Part shown: positions 3,559-15,597 of the stretch, in pieces | How the letters are laid out: each line of letters begins with the position of its first letter | Position numbering within the stretch: the stretch's first letter is position 1 | Translations under genes and position numbers: made by a program | Notes under the pieces: generated by a model | Told to the model about the DNA's origin: nothing | Databases searched by the model: none | Seen by the model: only the letters and a program-made list of their open reading frames with translations | Source: a plasmid | Sequence record: CP113993.1 | Strand: one strand, 5' to 3' | Length of the DNA stretch: 64,000 nucleotides

Positions 3559-4536
3559 ATGAAGAAGAAAAACAGCACACCCACTCCTCACGATGCCACG
3601 TTCAGGCAGTTCCTGACGCAACCGGATATTGCCCGGGATTTCATGGAAATCCACCTGCCCGCAGAGCTGCGGGCCATCTGCGATCTCAGCACGCTGAAAC
3701 TGGAATCAGGCTCGTTTGTTGAGGATGACCTCCGCCAGTATTTCAGCGACGTCCTCTACAGCCTGAAAACCACAGCCGGTGACGGGTATGTTCACGTACT
3801 CATAGAACACCAGTCCTCCCCGGATAAGCATATGGCTTTCCGCCTGATACGCTATGCAGTGGCCGCCATGCAGCGCCACCTGGAGGCTGGCCATAAAAAA
3901 CTGCCACTGGTGATACCGGTGCTGTTCTATACGGGTAAGCGCAGCCCGTATCCGTACTCCACCCGGTGGCTGGATGAGTTTGACGCTCCGGCGCTGGCAG
4001 GCAAACTCTACAGCAGCGCTTTCCCGCTGGTAGACGTTACGGTCATTCCGGATGATGAAATCGCTGGTCATCGCAGCATGGCCGCCCTGACTTTACTACA
4101 AAAGCATATTCACCAGCGGGACCTGGCTGAACTGGTGGACCGGCTGGCGCCCATCTTGCTGGCCGGATATCTCTCTTCATCACAGGTAATATCGCTGGTA
4201 CACTATATAGTCCAGGCAGGCGAAACAGCCGACGCCGAAGCCTTTGTACGCGAACTGGCACAGCGTGTGCCGCAACACGGAGACGCATTAATGACCATCG
4301 CACAACAGCTCGAACAGAAGGGTATTGAAAAGGGACTGCAGCAGGGCCTGCAGCAGGGACTGCAGCAGGGCCTGCAGTTAGGGGAACAACGCGGCATTGA
4401 AAAAGGACGTTCAGAAGGTGAGCGCGAAGCGACACTGAAAATAGCCCGTACCATGCTCCGGAACGGCATTGAACGCAATACCGTCATGAAAATGACCGGT
4501 CTGACTGAAGACGACCTGGCGCAGATCCGCCACTAA
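3559..4536 (+). CDS. Rpn family recombination-promoting nuclease (YhgA-like PD-(D/E)XK, transposase_31 family), full length; copy A
   Basis: Start MKKKNSTPTPHDATFRQF fits Rpn N-termini. The N-terminal nuclease domain is present (VLIEHQSSPDKHMAFRLIRY). The C-terminal region carries a QQGL repeat and the IEKG...RNTVMKMTGLTEDDLAQIRH tail typical of Rpn paralogs. Confidence 0.85.
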   Translation: MKKKNSTPTPHDATFRQFLTQPDIARDFMEIHLPAELRAICDLSTLKLESGSFVEDDLRQYFSDVLYSLKTTAGDGYVHVLIEHQSSPDKHMAFRLIRYAVAAMQRHLEAGHKKLPLVIPVLFYTGKRSPYPYSTRWLDEFDAPALAGKLYSSAFPLVDVTVIPDDEIAGHRSMAALTLLQKHIHQRDLAELVDRLAPILLAGYLSSSQVISLVHYIVQAGETADAEAFVRELAQRVPQHGDALMTIAQQLEQKGIEKGLQQGLQQGLQQGLQLGEQRGIEKGRSEGEREATLKIARTMLRNGIERNTVMKMTGLTEDDLAQIRH

Positions 4537-4817
4537 TCCCCCTGGCACTCCCTGTCCGGCCATCAGCGAATACTGGTGGGACAGGGAGGTACCAGAGTCA
4601 GGCTCTGCCAGCCACAGCGATTAAACACCTTCATCCCCCCCCCCGCTACGTTCCCCGTCAGACGTGTTGTATTCACACTGGAGCACACGCCAGTATTCAG
4701 CAATATCGTTAAGTACCCGCGCCGTCATAACGGCATCTGCCACAGCCGAATGCGCCCGTCCGCTCCAGCTCAGGTCTGCCTGGCTGACAGCACTGGCCAG
4801 CGATATCGTGCCGTAAT
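3970..4817 (+). repeat. Copy A of an inverted repeat shared with 14952..15597: the 3' part of the rpn gene plus about 280 bp of the 3' end of a convergent exonuclease gene
   Basis: Direct comparison: the reverse complement of 4537..4817 matches 14952..15230 almost base for base. Protein-level identity continues from DEFDAPALAGKLYSSAFPLV through IRH. Confidence 0.8.
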
Positions 4818-4985
4818 ATTTTCGCGGCGGGGCACGCCGCGTTAGCCTGTGGGGAGATGGCAGTTTTAGGCCGCTTGATGAAACAGGAACCCACCGTGGT
4901 GAGTCTGACTGCGGTGTGAAGGCTGTAGGTATTCCCCGTCCTTCAGGGCGGGGAGGATATCAAGAGATCTCTGCTTCATGCATTA

Positions 4986-6323
4986 TTAGGCTTTATCCTC
5001 GGGGGCATTCAGTGGATACGGGTTTTTATGAATACGGTTGTAGTTGAGGGTATAGAGCGCAGTGATGACCATCAACGTAACAAATGACCACATAACCTCT
5101 TTTGCCCCGGATCCCACGACGGCCCAGATACAGTAAACGAAGGCTATAAAGGTAATTAGCAGATACACTGGTCGTGCTTTACCGAAATGACCATGACCGA
5201 GCAGCAGCAGTGCGGCGCAGGTATAGAGATAAGGTACAAGGGTAAATATAACCGAGACGGAAGAGACCAGACCAAACTCTTTTGCCGCATTCGGCGAAAT
5301 ACTGCTGAACTGGAATATGGTCATCAGTACTCCGATGATGAGCAGCCCGGCGGCCGGCGTACCGGCTTTGTTCACGCGAGAGAAAACAGGGGGGAACAAG
5401 CCATCGTCAGCGGCCGCCTTCGCCGTTTGACCGGCAAGCAGCGTCCAGCCACCGAGCGAACCAAGGCATCCGGCAGCCGCGCAAAACGATACGATAGCCC
5501 CTGCGGTGTCCCCCAGCGCCATACGTGCCGCATCACCGAAGGGAGAGGCTGAGACGCGCAGGGCGGCGTTAGGGATCATCCCCATGATAGCGGTTGTTGA
5601 CAGCACGTAGCAGACAGCGGCAATTAACACCCCACCAATTGTTGCAATAGGCACGTTACGTTTTGGATTCTTCACGACACCTGCAGCAACCGAGGCACTT
5701 TCAACGCCAATAAAGGACCATAATGTTACGCTCAACGTACTCTGGATAGCACCGAATGTGTTTAGTCCACTGACGTTCCAGGCCGCCATATAAGTTTCAC
5801 CGCGAAACCAGAACCAGCCAAAGACGGCAATCCCGACGATGGGGATCAGTGCCAGCACGGTGGCAACAGCCTGTACGCGGGTGATCATTTTGGGCCCGAC
5901 GATGTTCAACAGAACGAAAACCCACAGTACTGCCACACAAGTGATGGTCAACACCATAGGATCGTTAAGAATGGGGAAGAAGTAACTCAGATAGCCCACA
6001 CCAATCACCACCATGGCGATATTCCCCACCCAGCAAGCGAGCCAGTACAGGACGTTGGTCTGGTAACCTAAAAATGGTCCGAAACAGCGGCGGGCATAGG
6101 CGTATGAGCCACCGGGGCTGGGATCTAAGGACGACATTTTGGCATAGACCATTGAGAGTGCCAGCGCGCCGATAATGGTGACGAGCCATCCATAGATGGC
6201 AATCCCACCAGTTGCGGCTAGGTTAGCTGGTAACAAAAAAACTCCTGACCCCATGATATTTCCGGAAACCATCAGAGTGACGGGAACCAGACCCACTTTA
6301 TGCATATCTGTGTCGGTTGACAT
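4986..6323 (-). CDS. adiC: Arginine:agmatine antiporter AdiC (APC superfamily); start at the internal ATG ([12 protein letters not shown]...)
   Basis: Near-identity over the full length to E. coli AdiC as recalled ([36 protein letters not shown]...). The ORF track gives an over-extended 496-aa frame. Confidence 0.9.
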
Positions 6324-13790: not shown

Positions 13791-14049
13791 TTTTACCTGT
13801 CGGTGACGTTCATCGATCATTCCGGGCACAACATCTATTTTTACCAGGTGTGCCTTATATCCCAGTCATTCAGGATGGAGATATAAGGCACGGTTTTCAG
13901 TCTGGCTATTTTTCGAAAATGCTGGGATAAGACGAGATTCCACCCTTATAGGATTTATACCGATTTATGAGCCAGTTGCTCTCTGGAAAGCGGTATTTCT
14001 GGTCAATATTTAGAGCGTGTTAATAAAAAAGATGGTACTTATATCATTA

Positions 14050-14389
14050 AAAAAATGTGTTTATTGTGACGGTGGCCTGTTCGGGTATCGGCTTTGCCAG
14101 TGCACAAGAAATTGTCAAACAAAGGGGGAAAGTCACCCTGACCACGCGCGAAGATAATGCCGTGGCACTTAGTGACGCTTGTCATATACCGGGTGATCAC
14201 GTTAGCTACAGACCTGGCTGATATATCCGTACCACAGCGTATTGTTGGCTATGCGCAAAAACAGTTTGGGAGGGGCGACGGGCTGGTTAACAACGTAGCC
14301 TGTTTTCCGAGAAACAATTTGAAAAGTATTACTACTGATGTGCCCGATATGTTAATACCGGTCAACCTCAGAGTTCCCTTTATTTCTTA
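14050..14389 (+). pseudogene. N-terminal half of an SDR gene (degenerate), fused in-frame to the downstream exonuclease ORF
   Basis: Translation VFIVTVACSGIGFASAQEIV...GRGDGLVNNVACF...DMLIPVNLRVPF matches the SDR TGxxxGIG and NNAG motifs. It ends exactly where the C-terminal half at 2890..3295 begins. Confidence 0.4.
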
Positions 14390-15197
14390 TAAAAATGGAT
14401 ACGGGAGTAAATACGGCGTTTACCGGATAGCGGACTGCGTCCCGTTGCGGGAGAAGCTGCCCCGGACAGAAAAACAGCGGCTGGCTGACGCACGTCTGGG
14501 CCTGCAGGCCAGGATAAAGAGTGAACGCGGTAAAGCTGCCCTGCTGGCGCACACCTGGTTAAGTCAGGACCCCGTCTTTCTCGATACCGAAACCACAGGG
14601 CTTGATGCCGGCGCTCAGGCGCTGGAAATTGGCCTGGTGAATGTCCGTGGCGACCTGATATACGAAACCCGCCTGAAACCGACGATCAGTATCGATCCGG
14701 CAGCCGCTGCCGTACACGGTATCAGTGAAGCGATGCTGGCTGACGCTCCGGCCTGGCCTGATATAGCGCAACAGTTGCAACACCATATCGGCCGGCGTCC
14801 GCTGGTTATTTTCAACGCGGATTTTGATATGCGCATTCTGAAGCAGACAGCGGCAGCGTATAACGACCCGTCCAGCTGGCTGGACACCCTGACAGTGTAC
14901 TGCGCCATGCGGCTCGCAGCGGGTTACTACGGCTCCACCAACCGTTACGGCACGATATCGCTGGCCAGTGCTGTCAGCCAGGCAGACCTGAGCTGGAGCG
15001 GACGGGCGCATTCGGCTGTGGCAGATGCCGTTATGACGGCGCGGGTGCTTAACGATATTGCTGAATACTGGCGTGTGCTCCAGTGTGAATACAACACGTC
15101 TGACGGGGAACGTAGCGGGGGGGGGATGAAGGTGTTTAATCGCTGTGGCTGGCAGAGCCTGACTCTGGTACCTCCCTGCCCCACCAGTATTCGCTGA
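14157..15197 (+). CDS. DEDDh (DnaQ-like) 3'-5' exonuclease-domain protein. The first 75 codons of the ORF derive from an SDR fragment, so the native start is uncertain, possibly the TTG at LREKL.
   Basis: Exo I motif FLDTETTGL. Exo II/III signatures are NADFD and H-x4-D (HSAVADAV). There is no in-frame ATG between the SDR junction and the Exo I motif. Confidence 0.6.
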   Translation: MPWHLVTLVIYRVITLATDLADISVPQRIVGYAQKQFGRGDGLVNNVACFPRNNLKSITTDVPDMLIPVNLRVPFISYKNGYGSKYGVYRIADCVPLREKLPRTEKQRLADARLGLQARIKSERGKAALLAHTWLSQDPVFLDTETTGLDAGAQALEIGLVNVRGDLIYETRLKPTISIDPAAAAVHGISEAMLADAPAWPDIAQQLQHHIGRRPLVIFNADFDMRILKQTAAAYNDPSSWLDTLTVYCAMRLAAGYYGSTNRYGTISLASAVSQADLSWSGRAHSAVADAVMTARVLNDIAEYWRVLQCEYNTSDGERSGGGMKVFNRCGWQSLTLVPPCPTSIR

Positions 15198-15597
15198 TGG
15201 CCGGACAGGGAGTGCCTGGGGGATTAGTGGCGGATCTGCGCCAGGTCGTCTTCAGTCAGACCGGTCATTTTCATGACGGTATTGCGGTCAATGCCGTTCT
15301 GCAGCATGGTGCGGGCAACTTCGAATTTACCTTCCTGCTTGCCTTCATTGCGGCCTTTTTCAATACCGCGTTGTTCCCCTAACTGCAGTCCCTGCTGCAG
15401 TCCCTTTTCAATACCCTTCTGTTCGAGCTGGTGTGCGATGGTCATTAATGCGTCTCCGTGTTGCGGCACACGCTGTGCCAGTTCGCGTACAAAGGCTTCG
15501 GCGTCGGCTGTTTCGCCTGCCTGGACTATATAGTGTACCAGCGGGAAAGCGCTGCTGTAGAGTTTGCCTGCCAGCGCCGGAGCGTCAAACTCATCCA
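14952..15597 (-). repeat. Copy B of the inverted repeat (partner of 3970..4817). It has a 168-bp in-frame deletion and fewer QQGL repeat units.
   Basis: Sequence identity to the reverse complement of copy A. The deletion lies between two CGCTGGTA 8-mers, at 4025 and 4193 in copy A. Confidence 0.8.

Follow-up and report, generated by a model that had tools for sequence, protein, structure and literature searches.

Inverted rpn-derived arms around the adi acid-resistance island of a pESI-type megaplasmid: a probable rearrangement scar

Introduction

Megaplasmids of the pESI type drive the global spread of multidrug-resistant Salmonella Infantis. We analysed a stretch of 64,000 nucleotides (nt) from one plasmid record (CP113993.1), hereafter the window, whose numbering is used throughout. 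Our subject is a pair of inverted partial duplicates on either side of an acid-resistance island, each carrying parts of an rpn nuclease gene and of a neighbouring exonuclease gene. Positions 3000-17000 are a 100% match to Salmonella pESI-like megaplasmids (IncFIB, MPF_I), and in PLSDB 104 records span 80% or more of this interval. The literature search found no published link between pESI and Rpn, or between pESI and Wadjet, the anti-plasmid system of which a remnant adjoins one of the copies.

The rpn genes encode a toxic nuclease, RpnL, and in addition a small antitoxin, RpnS, which is made from an internal start (Zhong et al., PNAS 2023, PMC10400941; Zhong et al., 2023 below). Repeats of four amino acids (12 nt), starting 8-20 residues after the RpnS methionine, vary in number within species, and RpnS neutralises only an RpnL of equal repeat number (Zhong et al., 2023). 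Stand-alone copies of RpnS, as well as fusions with them, exist (Zhong et al., 2023).

Genes and repeats at the two arms

Copy A holds an intact rpn gene followed by an exonuclease tail, and copy B an intact exonuclease gene followed by the 3' part of rpn, a layout that the first-pass annotation of this DNA had already recognized. Repeat searches and pairwise alignments confirmed that the two arms (Table 1) form an inverted repeat, with the correction that arm B starts at 14945 and not at 14952. Outside one diverged patch the arms are near-identical, as had been claimed: they share ~99% identity, with five substitutions in ~575 nt (at 4305, 4371, 4543, 4581 and 4714). This identity is far above chance. 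The longest exact blocks measure 112, 102, 78 and 69 nt, and A 3971-4024 is identical to B 15597-15544 in the pairwise alignment. The alignment also bears out a 168-bp in-frame gap (56 codons) in copy B, flanked by the 8-mer CGCTGGTA, which is found twice in A (4025-4032 and 4193-4200) and once in B (15536-15543); the missing segment can be placed either at A 4025-4192 or at A 4033-4200. Further differences had gone unmentioned: 24 bp of A (4331-4354) are absent from B, a patch of ~80 bp is ~70-75% identical between the arms, and a homopolymer reads C10 in A and G9 in B (15117-15125). Three junction sequences of the block are CCAGTGTGAATACAACACGTCTGA, CCTGAAACAATGGATGAGTTTGACGC and GTGCCGTAATATTTTCGCGG.

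The rpn product of copy A carries a full-length PD-(D/E)XK nuclease domain of the YhgA-like kind (PF04754, positions 1-201 of 203, E=4e-86; TIGR01784, 279.8 bits against a cutoff of 52.1). Its D...E-H-Q motif (FSDVLY...LIEHQS), which we take to be catalytic, is visible. The ~280 bp past the rpn stop codon had all been ascribed to the exonuclease gene; ~145 bp of them (4672-4816) are indeed exonuclease-derived, but 4537-4671 is the 3' end of a deleted DUF2913 gene. The exonuclease tail at A is predicted to be non-functional. At copy B, the DEDDh (DnaQ-like) exonuclease domain is complete (RNase_T, PF00929, 1-164 of 164, E=1.4e-18; PADLOC DEDDh, 1-138 of 139, E=1.5e-30). The native last ~11 codons of this gene are replaced past a deletion junction at 15089|15090, and the resulting C-terminus varies with the poly-G tract at 15117-15125. 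In gene content, the plasmid retains one intact rpn at A, predicted to yield RpnL and an intragenic RpnS, and one exonuclease gene at B whose catalytic domain is intact.

Table 1. Positions in the window of the features discussed in the text
Feature	Position	Strand	Basis or remark
Last ~40 nt of resolvase gene; left edge of module copy A	3387..3426	+	Alignment to the resolvase 3' end that precedes the third rpn fragment
Intact rpn (RpnL)	3478..4536	+	Longest open reading frame (ORF), 352 aa; RefSeq annotation 3559-4536; PF04754, TIGR01784
Inverted-repeat arm A	3971-4816	+	Repeat search and pairwise alignments
Two CGCTGGTA 8-mers bounding the 168 bp absent from B	4025..4200	+	Alignment
Predicted RpnS_A, 81 aa	4291..4536	+	Internal ATG (M272), GGAG 8 nt upstream; read from sequence
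Four 12-nt GLQQ-type repeats in A	4333..4380	+	Repeat search, alignment
A-type allelic patch in RpnS region	4395..4473	+	Alignment
3' remnant of DUF2913 gene, with C10 tract at 4635-4644	4537..4671	-	Alignment to Citrobacter pF3021-1
Exonuclease 3' tail, Exo III motif only	4672..4816	-	Alignment
tnpB 3' end and IS200/IS605-family right end; right junction of copy A	4818..4966	+	Sequence match
adiC-tehA-like-adiA acid-resistance island	4986..10221	-	NCBIfam equivalogs above their cutoffs
adiC	4986-6323	-	
tehA-like	6562-7635	-	
adiA	7954-10221	-	
DEDDh 3'-5' exonuclease	14622..15197 (ORF 14157/14622-15197)	+	Catalytic domain complete
Inverted-repeat arm B	14945-15597	-	Repeat search and pairwise alignments
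rpn 3' fragment, Rpn residues 165-184 joined to 241-352	15224..15597	-	Profile, alignment
B-type patch	15287-15365 (within 15224..15597)	-	Alignment
Two 12-nt repeats in B	15380-15403 (within 15224..15597)	-	Alignment
Predicted RpnS_B, 73 aa	ATG 15445-15443 (within 15224..15597)	-	Alignment
jetB-position gene, first 97 codons, fused in frame to rpn fragment	15598..15880	-	93% aa identity over 97 residues, E. coli C11
jetA3 pseudogene	15881..17361	-	PADLOC JetA3, E=1.7e-111 and 2.6e-83 on two ORF pieces
IS26, bounds conserved block	17387..18194	-	Outer 12 bp of inverted repeat missing on jetA side

The poly-G tract of copy B reads G9 in the window, while pSZL30.1 has G10, the S. Macclesfield plasmid G11 and S. 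salamae pCFSAN001016 G13; each length gives a different exonuclease C-terminus (168-191 residues from the 14622 start). In the pESI-type records checked, the corresponding poly-C of arm A reads C10. The spread in poly-G length could be slipped-strand variation or homopolymer sequencing error. Two pESI-like records (NZ_CP148827.1 and NZ_CP133182.1) match 13600-15230 in two pieces, over a stretch 26 nt longer than the query, pointing to a small insertion left of or inside the exonuclease gene.

The rpn fragment of copy B is fused to a Wadjet remnant

The ORF of 218 residues at 15224-15880 (minus strand) had been described as a chimeric rpn paralogue, in which a divergent Rpn-like middle region switches abruptly to copy-A sequence. 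Alignment of the chimera places the switch to rpn sequence exactly before DEFDAP, as stated, but what precedes it is not Rpn. No Rpn profile matches residues 1-111, the profile match begins at residue 112, and in the absence of any PF04754 hit copy B does not qualify as an Rpn nuclease. Residues 1-97 belong to a truncated Wadjet jetB, 93% identical to a 298-residue protein that in E. coli lies between full-length JetA3 and JetC3 (PADLOC E=0 each) and is followed by a JetD-domain protein. Since no profile in Pfam, NCBIfam or PADLOC hits the 298-residue protein, its identification as JetB rests on its position between JetA3 and JetC3. Judging by these alignments, the chimera is jetB(1-97)::rpn(165-184, 241-352), and the type III Wadjet locus in which it lies is dead. 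At the junction the sequence is AATGG|ATGAG; given that jetB has AATGGCTGAG and rpn has GCTGGATGAG, the two genes share the microhomology TGG(N)TGAG at the point where they are joined.

By nucleotide alignment the whole jetA gene is present, multiply disrupted. The ORFs at 15817-16470 and 16486-16890 correspond to JetA3 residues 295-487 and 155-288. Codon 8 reads TAA (17340-17338), 10 bp are duplicated in tandem (17075-17084), 1 bp is deleted near 17183, and the stop codon is lost. The stop at codon 8 is common to the jetA of the S. Macclesfield plasmid, whereas the duplication and the 1-bp deletion are absent there, so that the jetA remnant is the more damaged in pESI. With jetA3 disrupted, jetB cut at codon 97 and both jetC and jetD absent, the locus falls outside type III Wadjet, and it is predicted to encode no functional Wadjet system. 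What has decayed here, on a plasmid, is an anti-plasmid system.

Both arms share one deletion junction

The ancestral order of the module in IncF-type plasmids is resolvase, (hypothetical gene) and rpn on one strand, convergent with DUF2913, a hypothetical gene and the exonuclease on the other; we found this order in IncF plasmids of Citrobacter, Salmonella, Klebsiella and E. coli. Relative to Citrobacter pF3021-1, copy B of the pESI plasmids lacks ~0.94 kb at 15089|15090, namely the last ~11 exonuclease codons, the hypothetical gene and all but ~135 nt of DUF2913. The identical junction is found in copy A near 4672. It occurs in no other plasmid searched, and exact searches of the GTDB species genomes and of the JGI metagenomes gave 0 hits each. 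Given that the same deletion junction lies in both arms, A and B are duplicates of one already-deleted module and not old paralogues, which upholds the earlier proposal of a recent duplication of the two loci.

It is hence barely credible that an assembly artefact duplicated the module or that the copies are independent ancient paralogues, the alternatives that the first-pass annotation had itself named. The diverged ~80-bp patch is the only observation that could hint at different alleles. Outside it the arms are ~99% identical, and ancient paralogy is ruled out by the derived deletion junction that both arms share and that is absent from all other plasmids searched. Similarly, an assembly duplication is ruled out by the recurrence of the same structure in ~105 independently assembled complete plasmids with three backbones.

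The other edges of the copies abut unrelated sequences. At the left edge of copy A (3384-3386), IncF intergenic DNA from between ccdA and a nucleotidyltransferase gene meets the resolvase 3' end, with 96-97% identity between the left flank (3240-3383) and E. coli IncF plasmids. The right edge of copy A (4816|4817) adjoins the last ~100 nt of a tnpB gene and an IS200/IS605-type right end, positions 4818-4966 having 74-78% identity to TnpB 3' ends of E. coli and Klebsiella plasmids. Near 14390, at the left edge of copy B, DNA from upstream of the exonuclease gene meets pseudogene debris. We rejected a composite transposon or other unit bounded by insertion sequences (IS), as the arms are pieces of a two-gene module that differ in extent, their four outer and inner junctions have nothing in common and direct repeats are absent; a fold-back (palindrome) origin was rejected as well, the 10-kb spacer being single-copy. 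There is also no evidence that rpn transposes (Zhong et al., 2023).

A third rpn piece is present in the S. Macclesfield plasmid NZ_CP022118 (5236-5829, near radC). It consists of the 5' ~600 bp of the gene, with a 1-bp frameshift and a resolvase 3' end upstream, and is ~91% identical to copy A; it reaches rpn coordinate ~4071 and overlaps the start of B (3971) by ~100 bp. The pESI records also have a third rpn-matching place, which lies outside the window. As a donor of the diverged patch this third copy was rejected, because a frameshifted 5' fragment ending near 4071 cannot supply a 3' patch.

The block is widespread and stable in orientation

The same ~15-kb block is found in about 105 complete plasmids with three backbones, always in the same orientation. 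Positions 2158-17386 (15.2 kb) are 99.17% identical in a 416-kb S. Macclesfield IncFIB/MPF_F plasmid (NZ_CP022118), and positions 1-17386 are 99.965% identical in an S. salamae IncFIB plasmid, in which the block differs by one mismatch and two gaps. In a four-way alignment with the Macclesfield plasmid, every listed difference between A and B is shared. Together with the near-identical salamae block, this indicates that the two-copy structure predates the divergence of these plasmids, and the presence of the block in both IncFIB plasmids means that it predates pESI. The patch of each arm occurs once per record, in 103-104 records.

We also searched PLSDB for the junction that an inversion between the arms would create (A 3700-4816 followed by the reverse complement of 14300-14944), and no pESI-type record contains it in one piece. 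No recombinase gene adjoins either arm. These two results place the block outside the shufflon-like invertible switches. Since about 105 complete plasmids all have the same orientation, the block cannot be put down to an assembly artefact, nor is it a switch that flips frequently. In a young clonal plasmid whose arms share no exact block longer than 112 nt, the missing inversion junction and the single occurrence of each patch per record fit rare homologous exchange and not a switch.

The RpnS region and exchange between the arms

Both arms retain GGAGACGCATTAATG, with an ATG (at 4291 in arm A, at 15445 in arm B) that forms part of a GGAG-N8-ATG start context (A 4279-4293; B 15457-15443). GLQQ-type repeats begin 13 residues past this methionine. 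There are four of them in A and two in B, so that the 24-bp difference between the arms amounts to exactly two 12-nt (four-residue) repeats. Residues 308-349 of the rpn product at A match PDB 7TH0 (RpnA small protein) with E=2e-4, and the ~80-bp patch falls in this part of the RpnS region, after the repeats. At the sequence level, therefore, the internal start with its ribosome binding site, the position of the repeats and the helix bundle all conform to RpnS. The differences between A and B sit in the known hypervariable, mosaic part of rpn alleles. The B-type patch is found in many other rpn alleles; apart from a 93% match in a Yersinia frederiksenii plasmid, the A-type patch is limited to pESI-type plasmids.

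Copy B retains the whole RpnS region. The predicted RpnS_B frame is intact but lies within the 218-residue fusion ORF behind a pseudogene, and the NCBI Prokaryotic Genome Annotation Pipeline (PGAP) lists no coding sequence there. No consensus promoter was found upstream of RpnS or of the chimera; an extended -10-like motif at the 8-mer junction, TGGTACACT, was picked out by eye only and is not relied on. Most likely, copy B has no function and is a remnant lodged in a decaying defence locus. It might at most yield a stand-alone RpnS-like peptide, which, given the published repeat-number rule, would not neutralise the RpnL of copy A.

The first-pass annotation had further suggested gene conversion between the copies, and of this there remains a hint of one short tract, at 4600-4640. 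We built a seven-sequence alignment that includes three Citrobacter outgroups and covers the region from the DUF2913 tail to the exonuclease. All three outgroups read ...CATCA/TACCCC... between the DUF2913 tail and the exonuclease, and two of the three have the tandem GCCT GCCA. Arm A of the Macclesfield plasmid is outgroup-like at 4600-4640, whereas its arm B and both pESI arms have a derived poly-C form. Both pESI arms are without one 4-bp unit, and the flanking A-specific markers 4581 and 4714 are kept in both plasmids. With arm A of pESI being of the B type in this tract, the simplest reading is a putative B-to-A conversion of less than 130 bp in the pESI lineage. Alternatively, slippage may have recurred at 4600-4640, or an outside allele may have been imported into arm A of the Macclesfield plasmid.

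Could copy B nevertheless be of use to the plasmid? It might work as a stand-alone gene of the RpnS type (RpnSs) that supplies a second antitoxin specificity, or as a silent cassette from which the hypervariable C-terminal domain of the intact rpn is swapped, either through gene conversion or through an inversion at the identical 112-nt block that precedes the repeats. The two arms differ exactly in repeat number and in the helix-bundle patch, the features said to set specificity, and stand-alone RpnS genes as well as fusions of an rpn N-domain to them are documented (Zhong et al., 2023); the hint of conversion just described points the same way. The RpnS frame, GGAG-N8-ATG and stop codon of copy B are, moreover, intact in three plasmid backgrounds, but these backgrounds are at least 99.17% identical, and for that reason the intact frame carries no evidence of selection. 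Copy B also follows a dead Wadjet operon in frame, and no promoter-like site was detected for it; 0 of ~105 plasmids have a swapped cassette or an inverted segment, and the putative conversion tract lies downstream of rpn, outside the variable region. We thus consider a functional copy B very improbable.

The same long odds apply to a more specific form of the idea, drawn by analogy with silent-cassette and hsdS variation: the stranded rpn 3' fragment would be a working second RpnS cassette, either an orphan antitoxin or the donor for a one-step switch of the RpnL/RpnS C-terminus, through gene conversion or through a 10-kb inversion of the adi segment via the 112-nt block. If true, this would be silent-cassette-type variation for a toxin-antitoxin defence gene.

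A probable scar of rearrangement

We conclude, with a probability of roughly 0.78, that this part of a pESI-type IncFIB megaplasmid, a mosaic region, bears a rearrangement scar. Initially, as both copies plainly attest, an IncF-type module lost ~0.94 kb, that is, the last ~11 exonuclease codons, the hypothetical gene and most of DUF2913. The deleted module then came to be present twice, inverted, around adiC-tehA-adiA, an observed layout that presumably arose by inverted duplication. Finally, each copy would have been trimmed by separate illegitimate deletions of the microhomology type. Copy A would have lost everything beyond the last 145 nt of the exonuclease gene, which now lie against a truncated tnpB, and, on its other side, all that preceded the final 40 nt of the resolvase gene. 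From copy B, a deletion would have removed the 5' 164 codons of rpn and joined rpn to codon 97 of jetB; the 168 bp between the two CGCTGGTA repeats would have been lost afterwards.

Some observations weigh against this scenario. In the plasmids searched there is no intermediate with a single deleted module, with an empty site, or with an intact jetABCD beside rpn; a query for the empty site, made by joining the two outer flanks of A, returned no record spanning both halves. For this reason, we can only infer the order of events and the inverted-duplication mechanism. The frame, GGAG-ATG context and stop codon of RpnS_B are intact in three plasmid backgrounds, so that a loss of function in copy B is only probable, and the 4-bp indel within the putative conversion tract is prone to slippage and is seen again in an outgroup.

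Another question is what caused the breaks. The first-pass annotation had noted the look of RecA-independent recombination, and this stands in so far as the 168-bp loss (8 nt, CGCTGGTA) and the jetB'|rpn' junction (TGG(N)TGAG) are of the microhomology, illegitimate kind. It had also proposed that the Rpn nuclease itself, through RecA-independent recombination, made the duplication, the 168-bp deletion and the chimera. Zhong et al. (2023) likewise speculate that RpnL may itself initiate rpn duplication and the formation of stand-alone RpnS. Here, both sequenced junctions are short microhomologies and all three rpn-derived pieces on these plasmids are broken inside or beside rpn; microhomology deletions are, however, generic to replication slippage and illegitimate recombination, and the exo|tnpB, ccdA-intergenic|res and 0.94-kb deletion junctions look alike without rpn on at least one side. 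To our knowledge, no sequence signature is specific to Rpn cleavage. Moreover, the Rpn-like middle region that formed part of the proposal turned out to be jetB. A self-inflicted origin is therefore unlikely in our view.

Read as a scar, the block is an ordinary and stable mosaic flanking an acid-resistance island, a new example of known things without a new principle. It adds one case each of a stand-alone remnant that encodes RpnS, of a Wadjet operon that has decayed and of mosaic debris from an IncF backbone. Its sole unusual feature is the stranded Rpn antitoxin region fused to a dead Wadjet gene. The exact map of junctions, pseudogenes and inverted repeat nonetheless aids assembly, typing and the reconstruction of plasmid ancestry, and the locus is a handy natural construct for asking whether a non-cognate copy of RpnS matters.

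Surrounding DNA

No close donor was found for the adi island between the arms: the nearest species representative is Yokenella regensburgei (AdiC 96% identical in amino acids, 83-84% in nucleotides), with none closer. The homology to Y. regensburgei ends at the adiC stop codon, so that the junction at 4817 is not placeable in a donor genome. A 32-nt piece (11186-11217) is 88% identical to the tnpB/IS200-IS605 remnant at 4818-4966, 6.25 kb away, which means that remnants of the IS200/IS605 type flank the adi genes on both sides. Positions 10200-14400 are mostly non-coding, with gene debris read by eye. They include a SatP/YaaH-like fragment (13252-13542), an N-terminal fragment of a short-chain dehydrogenase (14057-14221) and one intact small helix-turn-helix regulator (11908-12216). 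Rfam detected no RNA family in positions 1-20000.

At the far side of the Wadjet remnant, the other end of IS26 (18195 onward) joins ybtX/ybtQ/ybtP directly, a junction present in no PLSDB record. The ybt cluster of pN55391 is found at the opposite end of the block and in reverse orientation, and what follows IS26 there is sul1/mer/tet(A). The unmatched junction and the pN55391 arrangement together point to an IS26-associated rearrangement in the replicon studied.

Comparison with known systems

As in shufflons and in hsdS phase-variable type I restriction-modification loci, a full gene is accompanied here by an inverted partial 3' copy, and the two differ in specificity-determining repeats. 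Unlike those loci, the block has no adjacent site-specific recombinase and no short recombination sites, and no inverted isomer is seen in ~105 plasmids.

The intact type III Wadjet of E. coli C11 (NZ_CP010133; JetA3-[298 residues]-JetC3-JetD) has the same order of jetA3 followed by jetB as the remnant here. Across jetA3 and the first 97 codons of jetB the two are 87% identical in nucleotides, and the jetB piece is 93% identical in amino acids. The remnant differs from the C11 system in that jetA3 is a pseudogene, jetB is cut at codon 97, and jetC and jetD are missing.

The module of Citrobacter freundii pF3021-1 (NZ_CP137125) shares gene order and orientation with the pESI-type module, at 83-92% nucleotide identity across rpn, the DUF2913 tail and the exonuclease gene. 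Whereas pF3021-1 has one intact module, the pESI-type plasmids carry the ~0.94-kb-deleted version as two truncated, overlapping and inverted pieces.

The closest parallel for the rpn genes themselves is the group of RpnL/RpnS antiphage genes, which includes the plasmid-borne RpnP2, and their stand-alone RpnSs such as ypaA (Zhong et al., PNAS 2023, PMC10400941). Copy A resembles these genes in its full PD-(D/E)XK Transposase_31 domain, its GGAG-ATG internal start, its four-residue repeats and its helix bundle of the 7TH0 type. Copy B resembles the RpnSs copies (PMC10400941) in being a separate RpnS-encoding part with a different repeat number. However, the described RpnSs lie directly downstream of their own rpn in the same orientation, whereas copy B is 10.7 kb away and inverted, includes 20 further rpn codons on its upstream side and forms an in-frame fusion with a Wadjet jetB fragment. 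The block offers a natural case of two themes that are reported or conjectured in the Rpn literature, separate RpnS-encoding copies and variation in repeat number, here in an inverted, distant and Wadjet-fused form.

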